DNA from: Squalus acanthias
Lineage: Eukaryota
Reading direction: 5' to 3'
NCBI GenBank assembly: GCA_030390025.1
Contig: CM059431.1
Location: forward strand, 146,508,001 to 146,572,000
DNA: 64,000 bases
The notes beneath the pieces were generated by a model, which worked only from the letters and a program-made list of their open reading frames with translations, searched no databases and was not told the origin of the DNA. Position 1 is the first letter of the stretch; every line of letters begins with the position of its first letter. Shown piece by piece: positions 4,111 through 62,880 of the stretch. The position numbers and the translations under genes are program-made.

Positions 4111-4289
4111 CGAAGCGTTTGGTGAATGATATAGAAAATTTGGTGCTATAAATGAAGCATTTGGTAACAGATATAGAAAAGTTTGTGATATAAATGAAGC
4201 ATTTGGTTACATCCTGTTGATACCAAGTGGAACTCTCAACATTAAACTCAATGCGATCCAATGTCAGTGGCAGACATTGAACACACGAT

Positions 4290-4420
4290 CCAGGCTGACA
4301 CTTCGGGTGCTGCACTGCCCGAGGAGCCGCTTTTGTCGGATGAAACGCGAAACCGTGGCCAATGTCCGGTCAGCTGGAGGTCCGACTATGTGTAAGAACT
4401 CCGGCTCCGCATGGGGAAAG
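4290..4420 (+). mobile_element. Deu-domain SINE internal fragment
   Basis: aggctgacact...tcggatgaaacgcgaaaccgtgg matches the SINE core at 54760-54880. Confidence 0.5.
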
Positions 4421-4458
4421 GGAAATTTCGAAAGTAACATTGAAAAATATTTGGCCTC

Positions 4459-4640
4459 TGGAGTGTGACATCAGGAGTGTGACATATGGAGTGTGGCATC
4501 TGCAGTGTGACGTCTAGAGAGTGACTTCTAGAGTGTGACATCTAGTATGTGACATCCGGAGAGGAACATTCGGAACGTGACATCAGGAGTATGACATCTA
4601 GAGTGTGACATCTGGAATGTCACATCAGGAGTGTCACACC
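4459..4640. repeat. 14-bp minisatellite (ggagtgtgacatct/a)
   Basis: About 13 imperfect tandem units visible. Confidence 0.85.
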
Positions 4641-4666
4641 CGGCAGCGCAGATGCTGTGTCGAGTG

Positions 4667-4738
4667 GGCGCGGTGGGCCAGTGGTAAAACATTGGTCTTT
4701 TGAATTGAAGAGCGTGAGTTAGAACCTCCTCTCTGTCT
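4667..4738 (+). pseudogene. tRNA-Thr(CGT)-like pseudogene
   Basis: 72 nt, gap-free colinear (about 52/72 by hand) with the vertebrate tRNA-Thr-CGT sequence as recalled (GGCGCGGTGGCCAAGTGGTAAGG...GTTCGAACCCC); anticodon and acceptor stem mutated; T-run downstream. Confidence 0.65.
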
Positions 4739-5111
4739 GTCCTAATGTGGACGTTATTTTTCCGAGCAGCTTTTTTCTTGTCCAGCCGTTCTATTTTTCC
4801 TGACCCACCTCCTGCGACAGTCTCTCTCTATAAACCTGGAGAAGTTGCACATTCAGCAATTAGACGGACTCGCCGCTCTTTGATTCACTGATTTGACATA
4901 GGACAGAGGCAGACATATCTTTGGGCCAGTTCCTTTTTATGTCCCTCTCATTTTCAGTTGGTGAGAGAGGTGGTGACCCTCAATCTGAGAACCTGCGCCT
5001 CCTGCATCCTCGTCTGCAATGTCATCTGCCACATAAAAAAGGGGAAATGAACGGGAAACAGGAACCCGGAGATAAAAATTGAGAAAGGCACAGAGACAGA
5101 CTGAAATGGAG

Positions 5112-5445
5112 AAGGACAGAAGCAAAATACTGCAGATCCTGGAAATCTGAAATAAAACTCTAAATGCTGGATATACTCTCGGTCAGGCAGCATTTTTGGA
5201 GAGAGAAACAAAGTGAACGTTTCAGGTCGATGACCATGCGTCAGGACTGGAAAAGGTTAGAGATGTAACAGCTTTCAGGCAAGTACAGAGGAGAGAAAGG
5301 GGGAGAGGAGCAAAAAACAAAAGGGAAGGTCTGTGATAGGGTGGAAGGCAGGATAGACTAAATGACAAATGGGATGATGGTGCATGGCGAAAGGAGATGG
5401 TAATGTGGAAAAATAGTTGAGTCTAGAAGAGGTGTAAATGGGAAT
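5112..5445 (-). mobile_element. Penelope-like element terminal fragment with degenerate hammerhead motif
   Basis: aaatactgcagat.ctggaaatctgaaataaaa...aatgctgga end sequence; minus strand ctgacgcat-ggtc-atc-gacc-tgaaac; short similar piece near 38010. Confidence 0.5.
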
Positions 5446-5451
5446 ATTAAA

Positions 5452-6615
5452 AAATAGGTTCAGACCTTTCAGGAGTGAAATTAGCAAACACTTCTACACA
5501 CCAAGGGGTAAAAATTCACTTGGTTGCGCCACCCGTTAGCGCCTTAAGAGGGCGCTAATGGGGCGCAAAGCCGCTAACGCCCGGGCGCAGCGATGTTTGC
5601 GCCGCTTGAGAACTTAACTTGAGATTGTGCGGCGGCGCTAAAACTTACCGCTGCGACCACCTGCGCGCGCAGATTGTGATGTCATTCCATGGTGCAACGC
5701 CCTTGGGGCGCCCCGTAGCTGAAATTGAGTGGCGCCCCCTGCCTTACCGCCTGGCGCTTCCAACGACCAGAAGACTGGAACGCTATCAATCGCTGTGGGG
5801 CTGGGGGGGGCGCTATTTAAAGGGGGCCTCTTCCTGTCTTTTATTGTTGGTGGCATTTTTGAACTACGCATTCTGAGAGAGAGAGGGAGAGACTTCTGGA
5901 GAGATTCAGCGTTGTGTGAAGGAGTTTTGGGTACTGAGCAGCACTTTGCAGGTTCATTTTGATTTGCCATTCCTTGTATCGATTTAGCAGAGACCGTGGG
6001 AGCTGCACTCTGAGCTCTTTGCCTGGTGCTCTCCATTGTTCTTTCCAGCACATTTGATGTGCAAGTCTCTCCAGGCCGAGATTCAAGGCAGCAATGAACA
6101 GGATGTGGATGGAAAGCAAGATTAACCATCCCCTTTAAGAACTGGCCCGTGCCATTGTGTGTGTGTTCCATTGCTGACTGACATTACATGAGCTTCGCCA
6201 GCGCTCCGAGTTAGCGCCTCACTGCTCGGCCTTTGCGCCTTAAGAGAGGTGTGCAGCGCCTGCTTTAGCGCTCCACTCACCTCCCGAGGCGGTAACAGTG
6301 AAGTTTCCCGTCAGTGCCGATAATTAGCGCCAGGCGCTAATATTTGCGTCCGGACGATATTTGCGCCCCAAATGGGGCGCGACCTAATTTCTACCCCCAA
6401 GGGTGGTAACAGTTTGGAACCCTCTTCCGCAAATGGCAGTTGATGCTAGATCAATTGGTAATTGTAATTGGAGATTGATAGCTTTTTGTGAACCAACGGT
6501 ATAATGGATATGGGTAAAAGGCGGGTATGTGGAGTTAGGTCGCAGATCAGCCTTAATCTCATTGAATGGTGGAACAGGCTCGAGGGGCTGAATGGCCTAC
6601 TCCTGTTCCTATGTC
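5452..6615 (+). mobile_element. CR1 3' fragment split by the DNA transposon
   Basis: agacctttcaggagtgaaattagcaaacacttctacac | gggtggtaacagtttggaac...gaatggcctactcctgttcctatg. Confidence 0.8.
5505..6397. mobile_element. Non-autonomous DNA transposon, PIF/Harbinger-like
   Basis: TIRs ggggtaaaaatt / aatttctacccc; 3-bp TSD caa (5502-5504, 6398-6400); interrupts a CR1 3' fragment that resumes at 6401. Confidence 0.75.
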
Positions 6616-6699
6616 ACTAATGGAACCAGAGATAACAGTTGTGAGGGAAAGTCGCCCTGCACTAAGAAATCAATCTCTATTAGAAAGTCACCTTTTTCT

Positions 6700-9600
6700 T
6701 TCTAAGTGGTCTGTACAGGATGTGCTTAAACAGAGCGTTTCTAATCAGAGTGTTAAATTTGGGAATTTGGAGAATTTGGGAATTCGGAGCAGAGGGGGAA
6801 GGAGGTGCTTATTTTTGTCTCCAATACTTGGAGTGCATTGTGGTATATATTTAATTTAATCTACCTAGAACTAAAAGTAGATCTAGCAATTAGCTAAAAC
6901 AAAACTATAATCTAAGTTAATTAAAAATGTAATGTTTATTTCACTAAATAAATAAAACAAGGATATAAAGGCAGCGCTATGCAGGAGGTGTAACGCAACT
7001 ACAGCATGTGGGAGTTTGTCGAGAGCATTGTTATCCCGGACAACCACGCCTGCAGACTGAGATACACAGAGTTGTTGAGATGGAGTCTGAAGTGCAGATA
7101 TTGCGGGGCATCAAGGAGGGGGAGAGTTATATGGACACTTTGATCCAGGACGCAAAAGCACTTATGACGGGAGTGTGTGACTGCAACTCAGGCAGGTAAG
7201 AGGACGCCAGGTGCAGTGCTGGAGGTGCGTCAGCCTTTGCCCTTTTCCAACAGGTATGAGGTTCTTGCTGCCTGTTTGGATGAGGGGAAATTCTGCAGGG
7301 TGGTTGAGCAAACTTACCAAGACACCGTGGTACAGGAGGCCATTCAAGTGTGGGGGGGGGGGTGGAAATGAAAAGGAATTTTGCAGTGTTAGGGCACAGT
7401 ATAGTCAGGGGGATAGCTACTGCTCTCTGTAGGCGCGACCGTGAGTTCCAAAGGCTTTGTTGCCTGCCCGGTGCCAGGGTTAAGGATATCTCCTCGCGGC
7501 TGGAGACGAATTTGGATTGAGAGGGGGAGGATCCAGTTGACATGTTCCACGAAGGAAGCAACGACATAGGTAGAACAAGGAATGAGTTTCGGCTGAGTGA
7601 ATTTGAGGAGCAGATTTGAAAAATAAATTACTCAGCTGTGCAAGGACTATACCCAAGTGATAATGGGAGACATTAACTAACCCAATATTGAATGGGGCAG
7701 TGATTGTGTTAAGGGCAGAGAAGTGGTGGAATTTCTGAATTGTGTTCAGGAGAATTTTATTGATCAGTATGTTTCCTGCCCAATGAAAGATGAGGCATTG
7801 CTGGGTGTAGTGCTGGGGATTGAAATGGTTCAAGTGGAAATTGTCACAGTTGGAGTGAATCTCGCAAAGAGTGATAATAATATCGTAAGGAGTAGATTCG
7901 TTATGGAAAAGGACAGGGTACAAGCTAGGATTGAAAAAAACTTAACTGCAGAAGGGCTACTGTCAGAGAACTGAGGAGGGATCTGGCCCGGGTAAATTGG
8001 AGTCTAATATTGGCAGGCAGCAATGTAATGGAGCAATGGGCGGTCTTTAAAGAGGAGATGGTTCGGGAACAGTCTAGATACATTCCTACTAGGGGGAAAG
8101 GAAGGACAACCAAAGCCAGAGTTCACTGGATGAAGAAGGTGTTAGAGAGTAGTATGGAGCAGAGAAAGGGGGCGTATGACAGATTTCAGCTTGATAATAC
8201 AAGGGGATTGAGGCTGAATATGAAAAAGTACAGAGGACCATTGAAAAAGTATATAAGAGGAGCAAAGAGACAGTACAAGAATCGAATGGCGGCTAACATA
8301 AAAGGGAATGCAAAGGTCATCTATAGGCATATTAACAGTAAAAGCGTTGTCAGAGGAGCGGTGGGTCCGATTAGAGACCAAAATGGAGAACTATCGGTGG
8401 AGGCAGAAGGCATGGCTGATGTACTAAATTAATACTTTGCATCGGTATTTACCAAGTAAGAGGACTTTCCCAAAGATATGGTAAACGAGGAGGCTGCTGG
8501 AACACTGGGTGTCATACAAGTAGATAAAGATGCGATACTAGAAAGGCTGGCGGTACTTAGAGTGGATAAGGAACCTGGTTCGGGTGGGATGCATCCTAGG
8601 ATGTTGAGGGAAGTAAGGGTAGGAATTGCGGCTGAGCTCGCCTCAATCTTCAAATCCTTCTTAGAGACGGGCTGCTGCCAAAAAGGACTGGACGATTGCA
8701 AATCTTACACCATTGTACAAAAAAGGGGAGAAAAATAAACCTGGCAATTACACACCAGTCAGTTTAACGTCGATGGCGGGGAAGCTTTTAGAAACAATAA
8801 TCCAGGAGAATATTAGTAGCTACTTAGACAAGCGTGGACTAATAAATGAGACCGAGCACCGACTTATTAAGGGCAAATCGTGTTTTAACAACTTCATTAA
8901 GTTGGTTGAAGAGGTAACAGAGAGGGTTGATGAGGACAGTGCAGTTGATGTTGTGTACATAGACATCCAAAACACGTTTGAAAAAAGTACCAATAATTAG
9001 GCTTGTTAGCAAAAATGAAGCCCAAGGGATAAAAGGGGCACTAGCAGCAAGAATAAAATAACTGACTAAGAGATAAAAAAAAAGCAGAGAGTTGTGGTGA
9101 ATGATTGTTTTTAGGACTGGAGGCAGGTATAGAGTGACGTTCCCCAAGGTTCATTACTGGGACCACTGTTGTTTTTGATACACATTAATGAGGTACAGGG
9201 CACAATTTCGATATTTTCAGATAGCACGAAATTTGTAAGTGTAGTAAACAGTGAGGAAGATACTGATAGACTTCAAGCGAACATAGACAGACTGGTGGAA
9301 TGTGCGCTAACATGACAGATAACATTCAACGGAAAAAAGTCTGAGGTGAAACAATTTAGTACGAAGATGAGGAGAGACCATACATACTAAACGTTACAAT
9401 GTTAAAGGGGGTGCAAGAACAGAGAGACCTGGGGGAGTTTTCACAAAAGTTTGAGGTTGGCTGGCCAGGTTAACAAAGCAGTTAATAAAGCGCATTGGAT
9501 CCTTAGCTGTATAAATAGAGCCATGGAGTACATAAGCCAAGAAGTTATTCTAAACTTGTGTAAAACACCAGGTCGGCCCCAGCTGGAGGACTGTATCCAA

Positions 9601-10685
9601 TTCTGGGAACAACAATTTAGGAATGACGTGAAGGCTTTGGAGAGGTTACAGAAGAGATTTACTAGAACGGCTCCAGGGATAAAGGTTATACAGTTACGTG
9701 GTTAGACTGTAGAAGCTGGGTTTGTTCTCCTTAGAGCAGAGAAGAACAAGAGGAGATTTCATAGAGGTGTTTAAAATCATGAAGGTTTCAGATAGAGTAA
9801 ATGGAAAGTAACTGTTTACAAAGGCTGAAGGGTCGATAACCAGAAGGAACAGATTAAATGTGATTGGCAAAATAAACAGAATCTACTTGAGGAAAAAACA
9901 TTTTTTCGCAACGAGTGGTTTGAATTTGGAATGTACTGCCTGATACGGGGTGAATATAGATTCAATTATAGCCTTCAAAAGCGTATTGGAAAAAAGCTTG
10001 ACGGAGAAAAACATAGCAGGGATATCGGGAAAGAGCGGGGGAGTTGGACTCACTAGATTGCTTTGTGAAAGAGCCGACACATAGAAACATAGAAACATAG
10101 AAGATAGGAGCAGGAGTAGGCCATTCTGCCACTCGAGCCTGCTCCACCATTCAATACGATCATGGCTGATCATCCAAACTCAGTACCCTGTCCCTGCCTT
10201 CTATCCATATCCCTTGATACGTTTAGCCTTAAGAAATATATCTAACTCCTCTTGAATATATTTACTGACTTGACCTCAACTGCTTTCTGTGGTAGAGAAT
10301 TCCACAGGTTCACCACTCTCTGGGTGAAGAAATTCCTCCTCATCTCTGTCCTAAATGGCTTACCCCTTATCTTTAGACTATGACCTCTTATTCTGGACTC
10401 ACCCACCATCGGGAACATCCTTCCTGCATCCAGTCTGTCTAGCCCTGTTAGAATTTTATAAGTTTAAATGAGATCTCCTCTCATTCTTCTGAACTCCAGC
10501 GAGTATAAGCCCAATCGACACAATCTCTCCTCGTACGTCATTCCTGCCATCCCGGGTATCAGTCTGGTGAATCTTCGCTGCACACCCTCCATGGCAAGAA
10601 CATCCTTCCTCAGATAAGACACAGACCCGATGGGCCGAATGGCCTCCTTCTGTGCTGTACTCTTCTAAGATTCTATGATCCTATG
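6700..10685 (+). mobile_element. Near full-length decayed CR1 LINE (ORF1 esterase remnant, endonuclease mostly deleted, RT)
   Basis: ORF1-like SIVRG...CCLPGARVKDI; ORF2 pieces GMHPRMLRE, PGNYTPVSLTS, PQGSLLGP, RPQLEDCIQFW; tail ttctatgat after a nested insertion. Confidence 0.9.
10082..10615 (-). mobile_element. 5'-truncated CR1 nested in the 3' UTR of the preceding CR1
   Basis: (atagaaac)n tail at the left end; flanking duplication gacaca; host tail resumes near 10616. Confidence 0.85.
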
Positions 10686-39860: not shown

Positions 39861-42800
39861 CTCCTTAAAAAAATTACGGCCTCGGCATACCAGCGAAACT
39901 GCCACCTCCTCGACCTTCCAGGCCTCGGTGATCCCTCACCGTCTGACCTCCTCTCCCACATGCTCTCCCTCACCGACGAGAGCCCACCCAGATCCCTCTG
40001 CCGCATGCTGTTCATCCGCCAGCTACCTCTCAGCATCCGCCCAGCGATCGTGGCGTCCGGCCTGACGGACCTGGAACCCCTGGCCGATGAGGCCGACAAG
40101 CTGCTGTCCGCTCACTCCAGCCGCAAAGTCACTCCGGACCTGGCAGCCAATGCCTGGACGCAAACCTCACCGGCCACCACGCGGCCACAAGGACCAGCCA
40201 CCAGGCCCACGGGGCCTTCGCGCCCCACTAACCCCGGCCACTGTTACTACCACGCACAGTTCGGCGCCAGGGCACAACGGTGCACACCTCCCTGCTCTTT
40301 CATGTCCGCCCCCGTACCAGCCCCCGCGATGGCCGTGGGCCACGCGGGCTCCCTGCTGTACGTCACAGATGACAAAACCGGCCGCCGGTTCCTGTGCGAC
40401 ACTGGAGCTCAGCACAGCATCATCCCGGTCTCCTCCCTCGACATCCAAAAGGGCAAACGAGGACCGGCGCTGGCTGCGGCTAATGGCTCGGAAATCCAGA
40501 AGTACGGCACCCGGACAGTCACCCTCGACCTCGCTGGTCGCCGCTACCGATGGGAGTTCATCACTGCCAAGGTGCTCTCCCCTCTCATCGGCGCAGATTT
40601 CCTGTGCGCCCACGGCCTACTGGTAGACATCCCTCGATACCGCCTCGTGGACTTGAACACCATGTCCCCCATCCTGGGCGCCATGGCCCCCCGTCAACCC
40701 GCCGACATGGCATCACAGTGCCACGCCCGGGCCACGGATGACTACTCGGCACTCCTGGGTGAATTCCCAGCCCTTACCAATCCGAACTTCTCCGCGGAGG
40801 CTGCCAAACACGGGGTGGAACACTTTATCCCCACCACAGACCCCCCAGTGTACGCCCACGCCCGTAGGCTGGACCCGGCCAAACTGGAGATCGCGCGGAC
40901 TGGGTTTGCCACCATTGAACAGCTCGGCATCATCCGCCGCTCCAACAGTCCCTGGGCCTCCCCACTCCACATCGCCCCCAAACCAGGCGGGGGTTGGCGC
41001 CCCTGCGGGGATTACCTCCACCTCAACGACGCCACCACCCCGGATCGGTACCCTGTGCCACACATCCAGGACTTCTCGGCTAGACCGGCCGGCCGCTCAG
41101 TCTTTTCCAAGGTCGACCTGGTGCGCGGCTACCACCAAGTCCCTGTCCACCCCGCGGACGTCCCCAAGACGGCCGTAATCATCCCCTTCGGCCTTTTCGA
41201 GTTCCTGTGGATGCCCTTCGGCCTCAAAAACGCGGCCCAGGCATTCCAACGGCTCATGGACTCGGTCCTTCGGGACCCGAAGTACCTGTTCGTCTACCTG
41301 GACGACATCCTGGTAGCCAGTTCCTCCAAGCAGGAACACCTCGAACACCTTCACATCCTGTTCGGGCGCCTCAGCAACCATGGGCTCATCCTCAGCCCAG
41401 CCAAATGCCAGTTCGGCCTGGACAAGATCGACTTCCTTGGCCACCACATCACCCATGCTGGGGCCATTCCCCTGCCCACCAAGGTGCAGGCCGTCCAACA
41501 AATTCCCCGCCCCACCACCATCAAAGGCGTCCAGGAGTTCCTCGAGATGGTGAATTTCTACAAACGCTTCATTCCCAAAGCGGCGTCCCTCATGAGACCC
41601 CTGTATGAAGCCCTCCGGGGCAGGAGCGGCAAGATGGCGGTCGAATGGACGGCAGACGCATCAGCTGCCTTCGACTCCACCAAGACCGCGCTCGCCAACG
41701 CCACCCTGCTCGCGCACCCATGGCCCAATGCCAGGGTAGTGCTCACCACGGACTCCTCCGACCACGCGGTCGGTGCCGTGTATGAGCAGTGGGTCGACGG
41801 CAACTGGCAACCACTTGCCTTCTTCAGCCGCTAACTATGCCCCCCCCGGAGGTCAAGTACAGCACCTTCGACCGCGAGCTCCTCGCGCTGTTCCTGGCGG
41901 TCTGCCATTTTCGTTTTTTGCTGGAGGGCCACCCCTTCACTGCGTTTGTCGACCACAAGCCCCTGACATTCGCAATGGCAAAGACAAGCGACCCCTGGTC
42001 CGCCAGGCAACAGTGCCAGCTCGCAGCGGTGTCCGAGTTCACCACGGACATCCAACACGTCTCTGGCCGAGACAATGTGGTAGCCAACTGCCTCTCCCGC
42101 ACCGCCATCCACGCCGCACACCTGGCAGTCGACTACGCTCAGCTCGCAGCAGACTAGATCACCGACCCTGATCTGCTCTCCGCACCTACCAACCTACCAG
42201 GGCTATGCCTGGCCAACGTCGCCTGTGCCCGACCGCAGTCACGGTCAAGTGTGACATATCCCTATGTCAACCTCGGCCCATCGTCCCAGCGTCCTGGCGC
42301 CACCGGGTATTCGAGATTCTGCACAACCTCTCCCACCCCGGCGCCCACGCATCCATCAAATTGGTAGCCAACCGCTTTGTCTGGCGCGGCCTTCGTAAGG
42401 ATGTGCGTACTTGGGCCAACTCCTGCCTAGCCTGCCAACGGGCCAAGGTGCAGCAACACACGAAAGCACCCCTCCAGGAGTTTACCGTCTCTTCGCGTAG
42501 ATTCGTCCACATCCACGTGGACATCGTCGGGCCCCTGCCGCCGTTGCAAGGCCACACGCACTTGCTGACGATCGTTGACCGCACCACGCGCTGGGCCGAC
42601 GCAATTCCACTGATCTCTACCACCACCGCCGACATCGCCAGAGCCTTCATCAGCACCTGGTTTGTACGGTTTGGCGTCCCCTCTGACATGACTTTGGACA
42701 GAGGTCCGCAATTTACCTCTGAACTCTGGATCGGCGTCGCACGCAATCTCGGGGTGACCATTCACCGCACCACAGCGTACCACCCCCAAGCCAACGGACT

Positions 42801-43400
42801 GTGTGAGTGGTTCCACAGATCCTTGAAGGCATCTCTTCCAGCCAGCCTCCAGGATGGCGCCTGGACCGATCGACTTCCGTGGGTCCTCCTCGGCCTGCGC
42901 ACCGCGGTTAAAGAAGACCTCCACGCATCGGCAGCAGAGCTCATGTACGGTCAGCTGCTGCACGTACCCGGCGAGTTCCTGCCCACCGCCACGACACCCT
43001 GGTCAGCCGACCAGCAACGCCACGACTTCGCCTCACCGGCGCTGCAGTTCGCCCCGGTGCCCATTGCCCGACACGTCGAATCCACCTCACATGTCCCACT
43101 AAGCCTGCACCAGGCACAGTTCGTTTTCATCCGGCACGACGCCCACCGCGGACCCCTTCAACCCCCGTACGATGGGCCCTACAAGGTGCTACATGCTGGG
43201 GACAAATTTTTCACCATGCAAGTGGGCGACAGGACCGAAAAAGTGTTGGTTGACTGACTCAAGCCAGCACACTCGGAGCCCGGTGAGCAGGTCCCTGTAG
43301 CTCGTCCACCGCCACGTGGCCGACCTGCCCTCAAGCCAGTTCACCCGGCTGCTCCACGCCCGGCCGTTCCACGTCCACCGGCGTCCTACAAGAGCTGCTC
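39861..43400 (+). pseudogene. Gypsy gag-pol polyprotein, disrupted
   Basis: Split among ORFs 39804-41834, 41789-42157 and 42205-43257 by frameshifts and stops. Confidence 0.9.
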
Positions 43401-43464
43401 CGGCTGGCCCATCAGACCACCGCAGCGTCTTGCCCACACCTCCTAAGCGGATTTTGGGGGGAGC

Positions 43465-43701
43465 TGTGTGGCGGATCGCCACCTAAACGGGCGCAAGCCA
43501 CTTTTCCGTCCGTGGACAATAAATCGGGCACCTTGCCGTTAAGGCACCTTGCCTTTAAGGCAGGAGAAAAGGAGTGGGCGGGGCCTCAGAACCTTCCAGA
43601 GTCTGGTGTGTTAGCAGCCATCTTAGCAGAGATGTATTAAAAAGCTTTTGTGTTTCGCACATGGACTCGGCCTTAATTCATGTTTCGCGGCAGCCACAAC
43701 A
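43465..43701 (+). repeat. Gypsy 3' LTR
   Basis: Follows gggggg agc PPT; begins tgtgtggc, ends gccacaaca; attaaa near 43636. Confidence 0.75.
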
Positions 43702-43919
43702 CAGTAAATAAATAACGCTTCTCTCCCTGACACTGGGGAACTATTGAGACAGACGACATAGCAAGTTTCTGTTTATTGTGAAAAATTAAAGAAAACATCC
43801 ATCCACTATCACAATTTGCTTTCTGTCACTGAGCCAATTTTGTATCCATACCGCCACGTTCCACTCAAATCCATGTGTTTCCATCTTTTTAATAAAGTAC
43901 ATATCCAGGTTTAACGATT

Positions 43920-44065
43920 ATAAAGAAAGACTTGCATTTATATAGCGCCTTTCTTGACGATCAGTCGTCCCAAAGCTCTTTCTAGCCAATGAAGTACTTT
44001 TTGAAGTAAAGTTACGGTTGTAAGGTACGAAACGCGGCAGCCAATTTGCGCTCAGCAAACTCCCA
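43920..44065 (-). mobile_element. Deu-domain SINE, 3' portion only
   Basis: Reverse-complement match to 54968-55105. Confidence 0.8.
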
Positions 44066-45020
44066 AGTACGGGGCGGTTTTGTGTGCTAGTTGGATGGAT
44101 CAGATGGGCCCCATAATCGTGGACAAGTGGGGGGGGGGGGGCGGGGAGACCGGCCCCGTTACAAGAATTTTTTCGACCCGTGCAGGAGGCGAAAGTCCAA
44201 GTCAGTAGTCTCCTGCACCTCAAGCCACCAGATTCTGAGAATCTAGACGACTTAAAAAGCTGGGGTGACATTGTCGTGTCTCTACAAAAAGAGACTCGAG
44301 ACACGCCAATCTTATACCCGGGCCCCCATCGGGGGCCGTAGAGGTTCAATGAGTCGAGGCCACCCAACCTACATGCCCCCCCCCCGAATACGCTCGTATC
44401 TAATCCACTGCAGCTCTTCTGTCTTGGCTACGAAAAATCCAACCCCATGGCCCCCATCCGAGTTAATCAGGCGGTAGGATCCCAAAACCCTGATATAGGT
44501 GGACTGGGTACGATGGACGAGGCACAGTCTTTTACGCCCCAGGAGAGATCCAGCGTCATCCTCCTCATTCCCGATCTCAAAAGACACAATTCTAACGTCG
44601 AAGTATGGGCATGAATAAGAAGTGCTGCTCGGCACTTTAATTTGTCCATACAAGACGTAAAATATATTATCGAGGTGAAATGTCCCTCTATGGTTTATGG
44701 GGCGTTGGGACACCATGTCCTAAATGCCCCAGCCACGATAGCGGAGTATGAGATCCAATTCGAAGTTTGAAAACTTGGGTTCAGACCGGACTGGACAACG
44801 GCACTGCTACCTGGACGGGGCTCACCGCCCTGCGCCAGAGTCCCGGAGAAAACCCCAATGTGTACATTGATCGAGTAATCGAGCAGTATGAACATTGGGG
44901 CCAGACGAATGACATTCCCGCTAATCACGACGACCCACGGTTTATAGATTGTCTACTCCGGGGACTGGAAAGGCCCTACCAAACCGCCCTCCGAATGAGG
45001 GCCAGCCCCCAGGAGGACAT
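44066..45020 (+). pseudogene. ERV-A gag remnant
   Basis: Major-homology-region-like RQSPGENPNVYIDRV and downstream FIDCLLRGL; upstream frame long but with stops. Confidence 0.7.
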
Positions 45021-45570
45021 ACCTGGTGGGTCACCCTGTGGGTAGGTCCCAACAGTGAGGACCTGCTCTTAGGTATGGATATTCTCCATCAGATAGAGGC
45101 AAATTTGCTCCTAAGTGATCATCTATTGGAAGTAGAGGGGCCCGAAGGGGGGAGATTTCCCTTCCAGGAATATAAAGCCCGACAATGCAGAGTAAAAGCC
45201 CTCCGTCCGGTTAAGCGCACATGGGCGGAGGAAGGACCATGGGGGAGAGTTTGCGAGGCTTTCCCTCTTGCATGGGCCCCCACAAATTAGACTGTGGTAG
45301 AGCGGAGAGGGTCCACGGTTCCTACCACGAGGCCCACCGACAATACCCACTCCGATCAGACGCTCAACGGGCCATTGAGTCCATAGTAGTGGACTTATTC
45401 GAAACCGGTATAGTGACAAAGACCCGCTCCCGTACCAACTCCCCAGTATGGCCAGTGTGGAAACCAGATGGAGACACTGGTGCCAGACGAAGCCGGTGAT
45501 GTGGCCCGGGGAAGAGATTTCCCCATCTCTTGGGGACCCTATGATTAAAAGGAAATAATAACGAGTATTG
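45020..45570 (+). pseudogene. ERV-A pol remnant (protease C-terminus and RT N-terminus only)
   Basis: LLLGMDIL; WAPHKLDCG; RQYPL...LFETGIV...NSPVWPVWKPDG, then homology stops; no YxDD, RNase H or integrase core seen. Confidence 0.8.
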
Positions 45571-45664
45571 ACCTGCCTTTTCTCCCCTATATTTGATCAG
45601 GACCGGATTTCGAAGGACTAAGTTGATTCTTCGGGGCGCTATTTTGCCTGTCTCTTTCTTACAG

Positions 45665-46330
45665 ATGAGCGGGCCCGACCTCAGTGCTGCCACCACTTCC
45701 GGGGATGTCGACCTTTCGGCGGTCCAGTTTTTCGACTTAACCAGGGATCCTGCGAACTCTCATTACTATACCACTCTGACCTTCCCCGGAACTCACCCCT
45801 TGACTCTAGAGTTCCGATTGTCTCCCTTTTGTGGCAGGGCTACAGGACCCCTCGCTCTTCATCCCAACAAAACTCAGAATTTTTTATTCACCCTACCCCG
45901 CGCAGAGGAGATAGACCGGTTCCGAGACACAGCTGCTCTTTGGGAACCGCTGGTGTCGGGACTGGAGGACCTACCCCAGGGGACATCCACCCCCTTTTAT
46001 TGACCCTCCTACCTCCGAAGGAGGACACTGCAACCTGTCTTCACACATTGCCGTCCGACGGCTACTAACCCTCACTGAATTACGATAAGTCAGGTAAGTT
46101 ACATTGAGCCACTGTCACAAGGCCACAGCCTCCGCCTCAACGCCAAGTATGAAGTAGCCTCAACCCTGCTCCGAGCCTTGCGCACACGGCTAATAGCAGG
46201 ACAGACCGAAAGGGGGCTGGTGACAGACAGGGGGTCAGAGGGAGAGAGAAAGAGAGAGCATGCTAGTTACCACAAGCTAGTGCCGAGACTGCTCAACGAA
46301 CTGGACTCTTTATGCCTAGCGGGGGTATAG
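45665..46330 (+). pseudogene. ERV-A unassigned ORF between pol and env (candidate accessory gene)
   Basis: Acceptor tctctttcttacag directly before ATG 45665; open to 46003; same frame continues through TGA 46076-46078 to TAG 46328-46330. Confidence 0.5.
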
Positions 46331-46337
46331 CGTAACG

Positions 46338-48401
46338 ATGGGATGGCTTATCATGGGAATGATGGGGTTACTGTTCGGCGAACAAACAACACCCACCACA
46401 GCGCTGGGGTCGTGCGTCGACCGGCCGGGAGCCCCCTTTTTCTGTGAGATGAACACTGGTCCATACAAAACACACAAGGGGGTCTGTACCAGTAAAATCA
46501 CAGGAAGAAAGGACAGGATATTTTGCCAGAATAATGCGGGGCGTTGGGAAACCCTTATGTACGCCTACCCTAGAGAGATGTCAAGCTTTCGGGATTACAG
46601 AACAATACGAGGAGCCCGGGCTACCACTTGTGATTCACTGCTACTGGGGTGCACATCCCCCCCCCACACCCCCGCCCCCAGTGGTTTCCATGACACAATC
46701 CTCCCCAGAGCGGGAGCCACTGACCTGCTAGTGGGATGGTGTTCATCCGTACTGGGGATATATTGTATGATAACGTGCGTCATGAATTAGTGTCAGTGGT
46801 GCTGAACCTGGCCAACACCGCCCTGCCTGCTTGGTGTTCACCACAAACCCAACAGTTATACCAGCACCTTCTAACACAGGTATTGAAACAAGGCGCGGAT
46901 CGTAGCGGAGGCAGATATAGACAGGGAAGCCGGCGGGCATGGCGACGTAAGAGGTCTTTAGTTAATGATGCAGCGACGGTCTCTAACACCAGCACATCGG
47001 CCGTTAACACCATTGATCTGGCTACCATAGATCAGAAGGTCTGGGATCTGGGTTCCCGCATTAAAGCCATCTTACAAGAGCAGAATAAGAATGAGGGCCA
47101 AGAGTTAAAGGAGGACCAGATATTAACCGTACACCTCCAGGATATAGCTACTGTATTAGAAACACACATGCAGACTATAAAAAGTTAATTAAAAAAGAAT
47201 ACAATGCCTCACAGCAGGCAGCAGCAAACGACGTTTGCAGCACATATGGGAATTGGATAGTGGAGCAAACCCGAGAAAACCTGGAACAGATACAGGCGGG
47301 GAAGGTACCGCTGTGGATTACCAACCAACAGTTGAAAGGGTCCCTGACTAGCGGGCATGCTGGGGCGGGTGTGCTCAAACGTCTCTTGAGTAGCCTCAAT
47401 ATTACAGTTTGTCAATTCCGAGCCATGGTACGGGTATACACCACGTAGGTCAAATCCAACCAGACCGGGGGGGCGGGGGGGGGGGAGGGGTCCTGGGTTT
47501 AGTTTTGGTCGTCCCGGTGATGACACCGGAGACACAAGGGTGGGAGGTATATCAGATACAAAATATTTGTATACTAAAAGATGGCATGCATATATCTTAC
47601 CACAATATATTACCTTACGCAGTGATGGTGAAAGGAAACCGGATGGGTACCAAGCTGGAGGTTATGTGTCACCAGACATGCCATCATCCTGTGTCCGCAT
47701 GCAATCAGCCAAAACCCGCAAGCCCAATGTGATTTCAACAACACAGGCATGGAAATTAACTGCACCATGGAGGCATTGGACGCAGCCTCAAAGCCCACCC
47801 AGGTGGCATACGCCGGCAAAGGCGAATACTGTGTAACGACCAACTTGAAGACTTTTGCGACATCCCCAGTCCAGAGTTCTGCTTCACACCAGCAGTTCCG
47901 GTACGGATTTGACACGAGGAGTTGGTGAACATACACCAGTTTAATATTAACTCTCTTCAAGTGTCTGAAGACATCAAGTATGGATTATGGAACTACATCA
48001 ACACCTTTGGGTATCCGATACCCCCACTGCCCGAACACCTGAGGCAGTTGCGGAAGGAGATACGGCTCTCCCAAGAGGTGTACTATACTCTGCAACAACG
48101 GAACACGGATTTAAAGAAAGATATCGACGCGATCAAGGTGACCACATGGGTGGATGACATTTGGGTCTGGGGACTAAATATACAGATCCATCCATGGATC
48201 CGATTAATTTCACATGTATTAGTCGTGGTGCAGTTAATAGTTGTCCTGACCTTGTTATGTATGACATGCAGGAAATATAAATGGACTCGGGCGAAACAAA
48301 TTGCAAAACAAGTGCTTAAAACTGCTAATGCTTATACTGCACCTACTCCAAGCGTTTCAGATGATGACTTTAACAACTTGTTGGAAAAACCAAGTGTATG
48401 A
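46338..48401 (+). pseudogene. ERV-A env / class I fusion glycoprotein, frameshifted
   Basis: Signal-like MGWLIMGMMGLLFG, furin RRKR (46943-46954), heptad region, Cys-rich middle, second heptad, Trp-rich membrane-proximal segment, TM helix LISHVLVVVQLIVVLTLLC, basic tail. Confidence 0.85.
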
Positions 48402-48760
48402 ATAATGAAGCAATCGTATAATGAATCAGGGAATGCCTAAATATTAACTTTTCTCATCTGATGCATACCTGGTGCCTCAACGGGTGGCCAATTCGATAGG
48501 ATTCACACTAGACCATATGCAACAATTGTGCGGCCTACCTAGAATAGGCAAAGGCCTAGGGGGGTGGGGGGAAGTATAGAACGAATTGGGGGGAGGGGGT
48601 TACAGGAAAACCTTCATCATTCGTGCTGTTTGATCTGGGCAAACCTATATGCGTTTCTGACATACTATAAACCCACCAGCTTATCACACTTATCGTAGCG
48701 TAGACAGCACACTCCCCAACCCCGCTTTAAGGGTCCTTTCCAGGAGTTGGAAGGGGGAAC

Positions 48761-49466
48761 TGAAAGGTCCAGCTTGTTCCCAATGAATTCTGGGATACTT
48801 GACTATGTTAACCCTCTATTTACCCATAGATTGTGTTTAGCTGACTGAAGCACATTTGCAGACTGCAAGACGCCACTTCACTTATCAAACTTCGGAATGT
48901 GTGTATTCGCAGCCTCAGTAAAGCCATTGTCTAAACACGGCCTGTCCTCCCAGGAAATAAGGGTACAATTAACAACCAACATTGTTCCAGTCACAGGGTA
49001 CATGAATCACTGCGGCCTTGTAGCCATCCTGCTTGTTCGACAGTTAAGGATAAAACATATTTTCTCAAACTATAAACTATGCCGACAACGGGGAAGAGAT
49101 AAAAGCAGGAATGTGGTGAGTAGGATGAGACAACCAACATCTGTGACTGGCATGGTCAGAGGGTATCCGAGTTTAAGGGGAGGGCCCGACAGTTGAGTGA
49201 CTAACCACATAAGCCAATAAAGAGTAACTGTTGTGTCACTGTTTGTACGTGTACGTCCACATTCTGTAGTAGGTGGGCGTTGCTTATAGAATTCTATAAC
49301 TTGAATGAACCGCTACTTGTCCCTCGAGAGTGCACCCCTAGCTTGAGGAAGCTGAGTGGCTCATCCTTGTGCACAAGTCTTTTGGTTATTGTAATAAATC
49401 CTGAACTTGTCCTCAATTCCGCCTCCATCTGGGGTTTCTCCAAATTCGAATCTAACACAGATTTCA
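48761..49466 (+). repeat. ERV-A 3' LTR
   Basis: After the PPT; tgaaa...tttca terminal inverted repeat; ccaat near 49214, TATA-like near 49285, aataaa near 49393. Confidence 0.75.
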
Positions 49467-50190
49467 CAAAGGGTTTTAGCAGTTGCAAGGCTTTTATTAA
49501 AGAGCTACAGTTTTAAAGCATAACCAGATGTTACATATGGTTTAAGCTGAGTATAACAGTCGTACAACCCGTGACAGTAGAGAGCGATCTACGACTCCCG
49601 AATCGGAATGACACGACCGGACGCACGGGGAGGCAGTACGGTGGTCTTGGATTGGGTGGATTCCTGCAGTCTGCTGCAGCGGTCACTTCCATTGGGTCAC
49701 CTCTCAAGCTGTTGGAGGTGTTAGGCCAACTCAGAGGCTAAACTTGACCAAAGTATTAGTCTGTAGCCATCTCGGCGAAGCCTTTTCCCCTAACTGACTG
49801 ATTTCCTCTCTCGATGGTCTATATTTATAGTTATTTCGGTGGGATGGTAATCACCTGGTGTCAATGATTTGATCCCCCATCCTATTGTCCAATTGTGAAG
49901 CGGGAAAGCATCCCGCACCGTCCCTTTCGGCATGACTGACAAGGCCTCCGTCTTATCTTTCTGAGGCATGTTTTGTTATGTTTCTTTAAGGACATTGTAT
50001 GACTTTTCGGCTTCATTTTTGTCTATTATCCCACCACCCTGTGTTGTTTTGCATTTTACGATTCCCTTATCACTTCTATTTTTCTTTTGATGCTTGACAT
50101 TCGACCTTGCTCGCATTTTTGCTTTCTGTTCCCAGCTGCATGTTTGTCAGTCTCTGTTCTAAGGGTTAAAATCCATCGATGAAACTAACA
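49467..50190 (-). repeat. ERV-B-family LTR, lacking the last about 35 bp of U5
   Basis: Reverse-complement homology to 63216-63918 (ataactataaatatagac, gaagtgaccgctgcagcag, ctgtagctctttaataaaa). Confidence 0.88.
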
Positions 50191-52480
50191 GCTACTTCTA
50201 ACAACTGGGAGAAGGCGATTGAGAAGGATTCTTGCGATGACTTTCCCTGTGGCAGACAGCAGGGAAAGCCCTCTGTAATTACCACAATCGGACTTTTCAC
50301 CTTTCTTGAAGATGGTAACAATTACGAAGTCTCTGAGATCGCCTGGCATGCTCTCCTCCTTCCAGATAAGAGAAATTAGTTCATGAATTCGCACCAGTAG
50401 TGCTTCTCCGCCATGCTTTAGTGCCTCGGCAGGGATTCCATCTGTTCCTGAGACCTTCTTGTTCTTCAGTTGTCGGATGGCCTTTTCAACCTCATGCCGG
50501 TCTGGGGTTGTGCTGAGATGGTGGCGGGTAGCATGCTGCGGGATGGAGTTGAGGACACTCGCGTCGAAGACAGACTCTTGGTTCAGGCGATCTTCGAAGT
50601 ACTCCTTCCAGCGGGCACTGACTGCCTCTCTGACCTTGATGAGTACCTCTTCGTTCTTGGCCAGCAGTGGTGTCGGACCTTGGGTGCTTGGGTCGTAGGT
50701 GGTCTTGAGTGCACTAAAGAATCCACGCACATCGTTGTTCTCGGCTAGCTGCTGGATCTCCTCCAATTTCTCTTTTATGGTGAAGCCTACCCCATGGAGG
50801 CGGCGTTCTTCTTCAAGATTGCCTTTCCAGAAGAAAGTGTAGCCACCGCCTTGCTCCTTGAGCAGGCCTTCATTTATTGTGGCGACGTCAATGCCGAGAA
50901 GTCTGAGCTCTCGGGCAATGGTAGCATTACGGCATTACTGTCTGTCACTCATGCGGTTGTACATGAGGGTTCTGACTTTCCAGGTCCCGAACTTCATTTT
51001 AAAGGGTGAAAGATGCCTGTGTGTGAATTATTCTAACGTGGGGTGGCCGTTGCACACCAACTACCACACGGGCTTGACAGAGCAAGGTCTTGGTCCAATG
51101 GAAAGGGGAACCAAGACGATTGGAGACCAAGCTCTGCTACAACGGCCTCGCACACACACACCATCTGTTCTTTAGGTCGCGAGTTTTTTGTTGGACCTCG
51201 GCCTTCTGGCCTCTGTAGAGCTGCTTTCTTGTTCTCGAGTTCTGTTCTGATTCCAGATCAGGAATGCCTTGCGCTTGCAGCTTATTAGCTCCTGGATCTC
51301 CTGGTCATTCTCATCAAACCAGTCTTGTTGTTTCCTGGTCGAGTGACCGAGCGTCTCTTCACAGGTGTTGATTATGGAGGCCTCTTGTGCAGACCAGGTG
51401 CTGTGGACACTCTGTTTCTCTGCATCACTGGGAGTCGTTAGGTTGTTTGTGAGGCACAGGCTGAATAGAGTTTTCTTAGCAGGGTCTTTGCGTGCTCCAG
51501 CGTTGATTTTCCTGCGGCATTGTTTCTGTTGCCACCGCTATTTTGGGGCTACATTGATGGAGATCACAGAACGGATTAGGCGGTGGTCTGTCCAGCAGTC
51601 ATCAGATCCTGTCATGGCACAGGTGACGCATACGTCCTTGCGGTCCCTCGCTCGGACGATGACGTAGCCCAGCAGATGGCAGTGCTTGGAGCGAGGGTTC
51701 TGCCATGAAGCCCTGTACTTGTCTCTCTGATGGAACAAGGTTTTGGTTATGACAAGGCCATGTTTTAAGCATTTCGACAGAAGGAGCGTACCGTTGGAGT
51801 TGGCTTTCCCTACCCGCTCTCTGCCGAGCACACCTCCCCAGAGGTCTGTGTCCTATCCAACTCCGGCATTAAATTCGCCAAGGAGGTTCAGCTTGTCACC
51901 TGTTGGGACTCGGGACAGGGATTGTTCAAGGCTGGAGTAGAATTCCTCTTTGGTCTCGTCTGTGGCTTCCAGTGTTGGGGTGTACTCACTGATGACGGTA
52001 GTGCACTGGTTCAGGGCTAGGGTGAGCCGAAGAGTCATGAGGCGCTCGTTCATACCGCGAGGAGAGTCTCTGAGGCGCCCAAATAGTTCATTTTTTATGG
52101 TGAAGCCTACCCCATGGAGGCGGCGTTCTTCTTCAAGATTGCCTTTCCAGAAGAAAGTGTAGCCAACGCCTTGCTCCTTGAGCAGGCCTTCATTTATTGT
52201 GGCGATGTCAATGTCGAAAATTCTGAGCTCTCGGGCAATGGTAGCAGTACAGTATTACTGTCTGTCACTCATGGGGTTGTACATGATGGTTCTGACTTTC
52301 CAGGTCCCGAACTTCATTTTAAAGGGTGAAAGATGCATGTTTGTGAATTCTTCTAACGTGGGGTGGCCGTTGCACACCAACTACCACACGGGCTTGACAG
52401 AGCAAGGTCTTGGTCCAATGCAAAGGGGAACCAAAACGATTGGAGACCAGGCTCTGCTACAACGGCCTCGCACACACACA
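50191..52480 (-). mobile_element. RTE-clade LINE, 5' half, with an internal copy of its own 5' end
   Basis: MKFGTWKVRT start, NERLMTLRL, LLGEFNA, WTDHRL, GTDGIPAEALK, GNYRGLSLLS; 50773-51160 duplicates 52093-52480. Confidence 0.9.
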
Positions 52481-62379: not shown

Positions 62380-62880
62380 ACCAGTACAAATCCAGTATGA
62401 GGTGGTTTTGGTGGTGCCCCCAGTGTCACTACTGCGGCAACTACCATACTTTACGGATCTAACAGGACCTGTCCCATCAAATAAAACGTTTTCCTCAATA
62501 TCAAAACCTATGCTCAATTGAAACTGACAGTAAAAGAGATACTTAAGTATGAGCTGCACAATTATGTGGCACAATTCGGGTAATACATTTTCCTGTTGTC
62601 TGAGGGGATCAGTGAGCTCGTGATGCGACTGAACTCCTCCCTGAAGCATGTTTATGTTTTGGAGCAAGACAACTAGAGAATAGATATTGAAATTGATAGA
62701 ATAACGGACAACTCACACTGGTGGGATATTGGACTTAATACATCAGCACACCCTTAGGTTCGTATTATTTCACACGCTCTGATAGTTCTCCAACTTGTAA
62801 TGATAGTGTATTTGATATATATAACCTGTGTAGTAAGACATTGATATATAAGTCAATTGTGTACTCATGCCTATGACTAA
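62380..62880 (+). pseudogene. ERV-B env remnant
   Basis: IDRITDNSHWWDIGLNTSAHP*VRIISHALIVLQLVMIVYL near 62690-62815 aligns with the ERV-A env C-terminus; VVLVVP near 62402. Confidence 0.7.

Follow-up and report, generated by a model that had tools for sequence, protein, structure and literature searches.

A 64,000-nt stretch of Squalus acanthias DNA from contig CM059431.1 (the window; coordinates are positions in it unless a contig or locus is named) contains a copy of an endogenous retrovirus (ERV) at 44065–49457 (+), which is 5′-truncated and pol-deleted. The copy is probably a dead member of an ERV family in which an envelope protein (Env) of the type of the paramyxo- and pneumovirus fusion glycoprotein (F) is combined with replication genes from the class I side of the retroviruses, the env gene having moved between lineages by recombination. 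The following parts were annotated:

44065–45012 (+): gag remnant in two frames, located by tblastn with the 434-aa gag-side open reading frame (ORF) of copy L022
45012–45290 (+): protease remnant, C-terminal part only, with LLLGMDIL, by homology; ORF 44925–45290
45281–45475 (+): N-terminal stub of reverse transcriptase (RT), 65 codons, QYPL...NSPVWPVWKPDG; the remaining RT, RNase H and integrase are deleted
45572–46264 (+): region X between pol and env, ∼0.7 kb, by homology to copy L021
46338–48401 (+): env, broken; predicted gene for an F-type class I fusion glycoprotein, 60–75% identical over the whole length to intact env of L021/L024
48750–48760 (+): polypurine tract (PPT) GGAAGGGGGAA, read from the sequence, adjoining the long terminal repeat (LTR)
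48762–49457 (+): 3′ LTR (TG...CA), the sole LTR of the copy, by blastn to the LTRs of other copies

On the gag side, residues 76–386 of the L022 ORF matched 44065–45012 at 42% identity, and residues 99–302 matched in the other frame at 68% (tblastn). The element begins within gag, at 44065; the first ∼75 codons, the leader, the primer binding site (PBS) and the 5′ LTR are missing. A 5′ LTR was looked for in 40000–52000 and none was found, nor was there a direct LTR repeat upstream. Residues 59–150 of the protease ORF of copy L026 aligned with 45012–45278 (34% identity). The RT stub, which an earlier note on this DNA had read as an RT remnant, is 78% identical to the beginning of a 957-aa protease–RT–RNase H–integrase frame on contig C3267 (locus L046). 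In region X, a polypyrimidine tract with AG at 45663–45664 is followed by an ATG at 45665, and the reading frame (ORF X) ends early, at 46003.

The env gene opens with an ATG (MGWLIMG...) at 46338, carries W-R-R-K-R-S at 46940–46957 (RRKR at 46943–46954) and stops at 48399–48401. Its parts are, in order, a signal peptide from 46338, a variable N-terminal part, conserved F2-like strands and the furin site, followed by a first heptad-repeat region (HR1), a Cys-rich beta core, a second such region (HR2, ∼48024–48140), a Trp-rich stretch (48144–48200), a transmembrane segment (TM; 48201–48269) and a tail. Comparison with intact relatives by tblastn located at least six frame changes (near 46550, 46700, 47190, 47450 in a poly-G run, 47660 and 47840), and there is an in-frame TGA at 47910–47912. 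Once the frames were stitched, 205.7 codons lie ahead of the cut and 481 past it, in agreement with the earlier estimate of about 205 and about 480. The LTR is 78–85% identical to both LTRs of L021, L022 and L023 over query positions 1–697 (blastn), and its end was set from the LTR/PBS border of L022; the LTR proposed earlier at 48761–49466 was thus confirmed as such, with its limits corrected and its end moved back by nine bases. Pfam searches with the window's env fragments and its gag, protease and RT pieces matched no env, gag or RT family. Because the 5′ LTR, PBS and gag start are lost, an internal deletion spans early RT to the integrase end and env is frameshifted, the copy is inactive: it is a dead copy of a multi-copy ERV family, and nothing in it functions now.

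The family was traced in the genome of the same species (3.7 Gb, 3882 contigs) by using the last 162 env residues as query. At least 150 scored matches were obtained among 8352 candidates, from near-copies on the same chromosome down to 50% identity. One near-copy, L027 (G000:C7:139593000–139602999), is a 98% copy that shares the upstream Gypsy element of the window and hence is a segmental duplicate. L027 and a further near-copy (C7:143304905–143305315) are 97–98% identical to the window locus in the env C-terminus and lie on the same chromosome, 3–7 Mb off, with the same flanking Gypsy; the near-copies of the window locus are the result of segmental duplication after the element had decayed. 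The Gypsy/Ty3-type pol itself was located directly upstream of the ERV copy at 40353–43257 (+), with the Pfam domains RT_RNaseH, Integrase_H2C2 and rve, and it groups with the Gypsy rows of the tree described below, as the earlier note had it.

Other members are far better preserved. Three of them (L021, L022 and L023) have LTR pairs that are 99.7–99.8% identical over 631–660 bases and stand 5.7–6.2 kb apart, with env inside; RT, RNase H and integrase are absent from all three. These pol-deleted, env-bearing copies are recent integrations, and they must presumably have used proteins supplied in trans by full-length relatives. Such relatives carry protease, RT, a degenerate RNase H tether, a second RNase H and integrase. 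In L026, pol, integrase and a 760-aa env are found in one locus, and the integrase ORF (5986–6801) overlaps the env ORF (6789–9068) by 13 bases. On contig C3267, the L046 pol is followed after 3.5 kb by an env C-terminus with 88% identity to that of the window, and in L046 gag and pro-pol are in the same frame with one stop between them (...LARH*DEPVS...). This layout is not specific to class I, since a second lineage described below shares it (L029 gag 7751–9679, pol 3263–7747).

The gene order of the family is LTR–PBS(Leu)–gag–pro–pol–(X)–env–PPT–LTR. The PBS of L022 is exactly complementary to the 3′ terminus of a genomic tRNA gene plus the CCA tail (tRNA Rfam 52.8 bits), and this gene was read, anticodon and intron by eye, as an intron-bearing tRNA-Leu(CAA). 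Of four such loci submitted to tRNA callers, none was called by ARAGORN and two by Rfam. Side observations on the PBS and the copies were also made: tRNA-Leu(CAA)-like 3′ ends are arrayed at ∼1155-bp spacing at G000:C13:49374722–49403666 and on C575; the PBS-matching 20-mer has 263 exact matches genome-wide; and head-to-tail arrays of the family with 6.1–6.3 kb spacing (tandem LTR–internal–LTR) are present at G000:C9:86891229–86909987, C29:9452317–9465346 and C20:13695142–13701796.

Intact env ORFs were recovered from six loci (L024, 690 aa; L025, 688 aa; L026, 760 aa; L028, 657 aa; L029, 847 aa; L030, 643 aa) and were compared together with the N-terminally open-ended frames of L021 and L022 (n=8). 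All eight share one plan: a variable N-terminus, ranging from ∼120 to more than 300 residues, is followed by a conserved C-P...G-P..G-L-V segment, R-x-K/R-R and the stretch N-D-A-A-T-V-F-N-T-G, and then come a long helical region and, after a core whose cysteines are invariant, another helical region, W..W.WG.NI.I.PWIR and one hydrophobic anchor. The furin motif stands at an aligned position in every one of them, ahead of a long C-terminal, F1-like subunit (∼480 residues) with one TM. The order heptad, Cys-rich, heptad, Trp-rich, TM, which had been read earlier from the broken window gene, was borne out on these intact relatives by alignment and by modelling. The motif CX6CC, reported absent in the earlier note, was found neither in the intact family proteins (0/8) nor in the three forward frames of 46338–48401 (0/3). 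A Pfam scan of 13 env sequences (six window fragments and seven intact ORFs) matched no family at the thresholds used, and so no retroviral Env family either. With a C-terminal subunit of this length and no CX6CC, the proteins do not have the make-up of gamma-type retroviral Env, in which the TM subunit is short. Protein database searches with the L024 env gave two matches, both chimeric shark gene models.

Some further features of the Env proteins were recorded in passing. A second R-x-K/R-R lies ∼10 residues past the membrane anchor in six of the eight (L024, L025, L026, L028, L029 and L030). The L029 protein is extended by a long segment at its N-terminus, where Ig_3 is faintly matched (E 0.31), and a Chiloscyllium relative (P0009) carries the UniRef name "Ig-like domain-containing". 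Within the window, a second and far more distant scrap of F-type env was detected at 62413–62829 (+), 34–40% identical to env residues ∼493–648 of L021/L024; no ORF in it reaches 70 aa.

The fold was approached by using AlphaFold2 models of the L024 Env, one of the full length (pLDDT 65, core 80–94) and one of residues 118–545 (pLDDT 73.4, pTM 0.64). When these were searched against the PDB with Foldseek, all of the matches listed were paramyxo- or pneumovirus F for the full model (43/43, best E 2.1e-10) and likewise for the core model (40/40, best E 4.3e-11); among them were F of respiratory syncytial virus (RSV), human metapneumovirus (hMPV), human parainfluenza virus 3 (hPIV3), Newcastle disease virus (NDV), Nipah, Hendra, Langya and Mojiang viruses, over 435–530 columns at 9–16% identity. 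VIA-align, a search independent of Foldseek that was run over 48,161 chains, placed F at ranks 1–9 with both the full model (Z 9.2–10.9, 277–351 aligned residues) and the core model (Z 8.6–10.4, 281–321 aligned), and foamy virus Env (8rm0/8rm1) followed at ranks 10–11 in both (Z 7.3–8.6, 225–287 aligned). As the aligned range begins ahead of the furin site, the conserved pre-cleavage segment would play the part of F2. Both fold searches put F first, in line with the F-type envelope proposed in the earlier note.

A remote sequence link was obtained with a profile of nine shark env proteins, which found 73 matches among 1.84 billion representative proteins. Names were looked up for 20 of these: six belong to sharks or a skate (Chiloscyllium, Mustelus, Pristiophorus twice, Rhinoraja and Scyliorhinus), six to frogs, one to the coelacanth and one to a cyprinid, and six are unnamed. 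The Pfam F family PF00523 appeared in three of 19 scanned profile matches at 25.6–29.2 bits, just below the cut-off of 29.8. The motif PGPxxG(I/V/L) is present in each of five weaker matches (P0055, P0061, P0066, P0067 and P0071; E 1.0e-7 to 4.1e-4), for three of which a match to PF00523 was obtained, and four of the five have by eye the KR-F-hydrophobic fusion peptide printed for lokiretrovirus (Loki) Env in PMC7947760; the start of P0061 is, again by eye, nearly letter for letter that of Loki-Dcl Env in the supplement of that paper. (This and the other publications cited were available in part, and statements about them refer to the available parts.) Since the profile reaches proteins that resemble published Loki Env, a profile-level relationship links the shark env family to the Env of lokiretroviruses. 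The shark env words FNTG, YCVT, NCTM and CGFN have no occurrence in the available portion of the loki supplement. In the ESM Atlas, 11–21% of the members of the nearest clusters have PF00523 or Baculo_F, which is taken as a lead only. Two predicted models, two independent fold searches and the profile link to loki-type Env together support the assignment of the family env as a predicted F-type envelope.

By its architecture and predicted fold, the family Env has a signal peptide, an F2-like beta segment, a furin site and an F1-like subunit with long helices of heptad repeat A (HRA), a disulphide-bonded beta core and heptad repeat B (HRB). At its membrane end it has the Trp-rich membrane-proximal stretch and one anchor. 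By analogy with the established mechanism of paramyxo- and pneumovirus F, the cleaved Env may form a metastable trimer that refolds into a six-helix bundle of HRA and HRB and so drives membrane fusion, and the variable N-terminal part would be a probable receptor-binding module.

Only the first RT residues are left in the window, so the placement of the replication genes was decided on full-length relatives. Against PDB sequences, the L046 pol scored 320–323 bits to RT–RNase H of xenotropic murine leukaemia virus-related virus (XMRV) and murine leukaemia virus (MLV or MuLV), 169–183 to foamy protease–RT, 108–132 to Ty3 and ∼65 to the RT of human immunodeficiency virus (HIV). Its nearest database relatives are pols of cyprinid ERVs (47–54% identity), several of which have the integrase domain MLVIN_C; they are followed by bird, reptile and mammal class I ERVs with MLVIN_C and Gag_p30. 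An RT–RNase H tree was computed from 67 rows and 592 columns by a quick IQ-TREE run (LG+C20), with support from the Shimodaira–Hasegawa-like approximate likelihood ratio test (SH-aLRT) only and 12 Gypsy rows as root. The window family (L046, L026 and L031) and its cyprinid relatives form a group of eight rows (SH-aLRT 97) that belongs, together with class I ERVs, to a clade of 38 rows (99); this in turn lies within a 44-row clade (96) from which the foamy-like row and the second lineage are excluded. The earlier note had named RT of complete copies within Gypsy as an outcome that would speak against it; this was not seen, and L046 and L026 nest with class I ERVs. Two RNase H domains (RT_RNaseH_2/RT_RNaseH and RNase_H PF00075) are present in L046, L028 and L029, a feature that does not discriminate, as it is common to all retroviruses. 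On the full-length relatives, the replication genes are those of a canonical retrovirus of the class I (gamma/epsilon-related) side. P0244 was tried as a class II reference and rejected: it fills 35% of the columns and fell among bird class I rows, and nothing was drawn from it. A very abundant other ERV family was also noticed, with dozens of loci of identical scores and open 1187-aa pol frames (e.g. G000:C15:18125067 and C4:144070637); it is 51% identical to the window RT stub.

A second pol lineage was found to carry the same type of env. In its members L028, L029 and L030 the provirus is nearly complete, with gag (CCHC), a pro-pol of 1091–1495 aa and env. Their pol is ∼33–34% identical to that of the window family, has its nearest relatives in "NYNRIN-like" proteins of frogs and the coelacanth (43–46%) and scored 229–232 bits to MLV, 184–222 to foamy virus and 146 to Ty3 RT in the PDB comparison. 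In the RT–RNase H tree this lineage stands outside the class I clade, in the base without resolution. By eye, L029 shares KPD.SWR, LDISNGFWSI, QY.FAFTF and LPQGFH.SP.IFHQ with the row of snakehead retrovirus (SnRV) in the available supplement of PMC7947760; a comparison of the L029 RT with viral contigs gave no relative. Forcing the window family and the second lineage into one clade costs 101 log-likelihood units (approximately unbiased (AU) test, p-AU 7.8e-7). A 30-row env tree, by contrast, unites both shark lineages with Mustelus, Pristiophorus and Rhinoraja in a single chondrichthyan clade (SH-aLRT 99), apart from a clade of frog, Xenopus, coelacanth and Chiloscyllium sequences and from the loki-type clade. 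From this conflict between the pol and env trees we infer that env moved between two retroviral lineages by recombination within cartilaginous fishes, which is the simplest reading. As a separate observation, the env of Rhinoraja longicauda (P0004) is separated from that of L029/L030 by a path length of 0.29; this closeness hints at recent cross-species spread between the skate and shark lineages.

Region X is 80.5% identical to a 226-aa ORF upstream of env in L021. Counted from its Met, ORF X has 195 aa in L021 (3149–3733, −) and sits between integrase and env; it is open in L021, L022 and L023 and across the 145 aa covered by L046. Among the loci examined, region X is confined to the window subfamily and L046. 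Searches of Pfam, PDB sequences and the ESM Atlas gave no relative, and ORF X is possibly an accessory gene. A splice-donor motif (CAG|GTAAGG) follows the PBS, and a polypyrimidine–AG acceptor abuts the ORF X ATG. Contigs of four of nine sequencing runs, whose RNA nature is guessed, cover most of copy L022, and one contig of one run (X2) has a GT..AG joint from 3971 to 6275 of L022; one side of it is 27 letters long, below the criterion of 31, and the joint was not counted. Since the joint falls below the criterion and the RNA nature of the run is guessed, a spliced subgenomic RNA from the leader to the ORF X acceptor is put forward as a hypothesis only.

Several results weigh against an F-type envelope on class I-side replication genes. 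After the furin site, none of the eight Env proteins has a 19-residue window with a mean hydropathy above 1.9; the post-cleavage stretch is weakly hydrophobic, and a classical fusion peptide is not evident, although by eye NDAATVFNTG.SVVN can be aligned with the latter half of the fusion peptide of Loki Env. The Z-scores of foamy Env are within ∼1–3 units of those of F, and TM-scores are modest (0.28–0.54) with large rmsd, owing to the different placement of the long helices. PF00523 was matched by none of 13 shark env sequences and fragments at E up to 0.1–1, and the shark env profile gave only a chance match among PDB sequences (E 1.1), so that the F assignment rests on the predicted models and the transitive profile link. 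On the side of the replication genes, the gag ORFs gave no Gag_p30 match, and MLVIN_C in L026 was found at E 0.0048, under the cut-off. The trees, with SH-aLRT support only, were computed without a lokiretrovirus, SnRV, walleye dermal sarcoma virus (WDSV) or class II reference; their sole foamy-like row (L042) is degraded and has an end branch of 2.95, and the group submitted to the AU test was named after the tree had been seen.

The earlier note had placed the element at or near the lokiretroviruses. For env this stood, the shark env being homologous at profile level to loki-type Env; for the replication genes a loki placement is not supported, and that the element should be a lokiretrovirus, or its nearest sister lineage, in pol as well as in env appears to us very improbable. 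The RT stub motif NSPVWPV.KPDG resembles loki NSPIWPVLKPTG and had been offered as a pointer, but by eye in the available supplement of PMC7947760 it is common to loki, SnRV and Gypsy-like RTs; it is thus ancestral and cannot discriminate. Over the first 53 RT residues, L046 has by eye 25 identities to Loki-Pfl, 26 to SnRV and 18 to MuLV. Farther on, L046, L029, L031 and P0173 have the palm motif LPQG(F/L)..P where all 11 loki passages compared in that source have PFGY(S/A)NSP, and by eye these four sequences lack the loki RT signature (...RCPFGY(S/A)NSPAEFN..., ...SRWPM...); the L046 RT words TIDYT, NPATIL and FAFTV have no occurrence in the available loki supplement. In the tree the full-length relatives sit among class I ERVs, and a clade uniting them with the basal lineage is rejected by the AU test; MLV RT–RNase H reached 320 bits against 182 for foamy. 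In the available part of Wang & Han 2020 (PMC7947760), Callorhinchus, two Chiloscyllium and Rhincodon, i.e. four chondrichthyan genomes screened by RT, are listed without a presence mark and the main text is without sharks, in agreement with the earlier note, which knew of no described chondrichthyan members, though Chiloscyllium punctatum has the env relative P0009. The missing mark fits an F-type env on non-loki RTs, as a screen based on RT would not flag such elements. An ordinary epsilon- or SnRV-like fish retrovirus, whose F-likeness would be a general, unremarked property of the "distinct" Env of WDSV and SnRV rather than a capture from the loki side, is unlikely, yet it deserves more weight; it is compatible with the explanation given here on the identity of the element and differs on novelty and history. 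WDSV and walleye epidermal hyperplasia virus (WEHV) Env lack gamma-type hallmarks (PMC9967133; bioRxiv 2021.11.23.469661, available parts), elephant-shark ERVs cluster with SnRV and epsilonretroviruses (PMC4422223, in part), L029 shares its long RT motifs with SnRV by eye and env relatives occur in frogs, which are hosts of epsilon-like ERVs; against this, no profile match was tied to WDSV, WEHV or SnRV, 20 of the 73 having been looked up by name.

A foamy-type Env on a spuma-like (class III) ERV would account for the appearance of 8rm0/8rm1 at VIA-align ranks 10–11 (Z 7.3–8.6), and shark ERV RTs are mostly clade III in the available part of PMC11089739; even so, such an origin is extremely improbable. 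F outranks foamy Env in both VIA-align searches, and the foamy Env family PF03408 was matched by none of 13 env sequences, against 11 separate matches of up to 87.8 bits elsewhere in the same genome. Only ∼200 residues precede the cleavage site in the window env, whereas foamy Env has a leader peptide plus a large surface subunit before it. The L028/L029 gag has a CCHC knuckle and that of L046 ends knuckle-like (...GHQQANC), while foamy Gag is, to our knowledge, without one; the L046 pol also scores higher to MLV than to foamy virus. The 11 places with true foamy-type env remnants (PF03408, up to 87.8 bits; L036–L045) are an observation in their own right, as is a degraded foamy-like pol in L042. 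We give just as little probability to the idea that nested or adjacent unrelated insertions, or a misassembly, falsely connect F-type env with class I pol. The genome is full of ERV and Gypsy copies, and the window itself has a Gypsy pol upstream and the env scrap at 62413–62829; but the window, L027, L021, L022, L023 and the C3267 copy all have the order gag, protease/RT stub or pol, X, env, LTR, the LTR pairs that enclose env are 99.7–99.8% identical, and the integrase and env frames of L026 overlap by 13 bases.

The rest of the window's surroundings adds one feature, a 249-aa open frame at 50185–50934 (−) that resembles part of a non-LTR retrotransposon, as read from its translation.

The preferred explanation, an F-type env on class I-side replication genes, has consequences beyond the window copy, which is itself a fossil without functional consequence. 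What is new here is that an envelope type already known occurs on unexpected backbones and in a host class for which it had not been reported: the literature searched, which leaves subscription journals uncovered, describes neither an F-type env with a class I or SnRV-like backbone nor a loki-type env in cartilaginous fish. Published work holds that an F-like Env defines the lokiretroviruses and that canonical retroviruses have an unrelated Env (PMC7947760; PMC9040795), with no detectable similarity between the two and independent origins preferred (PMC9040795; both in the available parts). A class I family with a loki-related F-type env, together with a sister env on an SnRV-like backbone, weakens the argument for independent capture; env modules would have crossed between deep retroviral lineages, and the known hosts of F-type retroviral envelopes now include cartilaginous fishes, where there had been a gap. 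Screens based on RT and on gamma-type Env would both miss retroviruses of this class. We lean slightly towards a wider proposal, in which a loki-related F-type env is native to cartilaginous fishes on at least two canonical pol lineages (class I-like and SnRV-like), has been exchanged by recombination and is present in some very recent copies. If this is true, it contradicts the statement of no similarity in the available part of PMC9040795; F-type Env would, with foamy Env, be a candidate for the ancestral retroviral envelope, and it may be the unrecognised nature of the "distinct" epsilonretrovirus Env.

Among known systems, Loki Env and shark env are alike in being divided by an R-x-K/R-R cut into a conserved N-terminal subunit that is short and a long C-terminal one that holds coiled coils and the TM; by eye, they also share a PGPxxG(I/L)V segment and ...F.(L/T)G.S.VN... 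after the cut. They differ in that PF00523 was reported for Loki-Str Env at 2.2e-7 (PMC7947760, in part), whereas shark env has no direct match; shark env also lacks the hydrophobic FLGGLL.AAA start of the loki fusion peptide, has a larger variable N-terminal part and is found on non-loki pol backbones, in a host class without reported loki elements. With paramyxo- and pneumovirus F (PF00523; 6apb, 1ztm, 3maw, 7sem and 2b9b), shark env shares a predicted fold over ∼280–350 residues (F2-like plus F1-like core), as well as furin activation, HRA and HRB and a C-terminal TM; the two differ in sequence (9–16% identity, no Pfam match), in the extra N-terminal module, the Trp-rich stretch and the weakly hydrophobic post-cleavage end of the shark protein, and in that shark env is retrovirus-encoded and has no separate attachment protein. 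F, coronavirus spike and foamy Env have been grouped as structural "subclass Ib", with F as the minimal scaffold (PMC11468914, in part), and the reference list of that paper includes shark foamy-like ERVs. Foamy Env and shark env would share the F-type fusion core; shark env is without PF03408 and is F-sized with an N-terminal add-on, and the pol and gag that accompany it are not foamy-like.

Of the canonical retroviruses, the cyprinid class I ERVs (P0173, P0174 and P0179) are closest to the window family in pol (47–54%); they form sister rows in the RT–RNase H tree, have the same domain order and in several cases MLVIN_C. Zebrafish ERV Env is gamma-type according to the available part of PMC9967133, in contrast to the predicted F-type Env of the shark family; that source calls WDSV-type Env "distinct" with the type unspecified, and an anamniote Env survey covered gamma- and beta-type Env only (bioRxiv 2021.11.23.469661, in part). 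SnRV resembles the second lineage (L028, L029 and L030) and its frog and coelacanth relatives, which by eye share long RT motifs with the SnRV row, whereas the window family stands further from it: over the first 53 RT residues it agrees with SnRV at ∼26, and it shares fewer of the motifs that follow.

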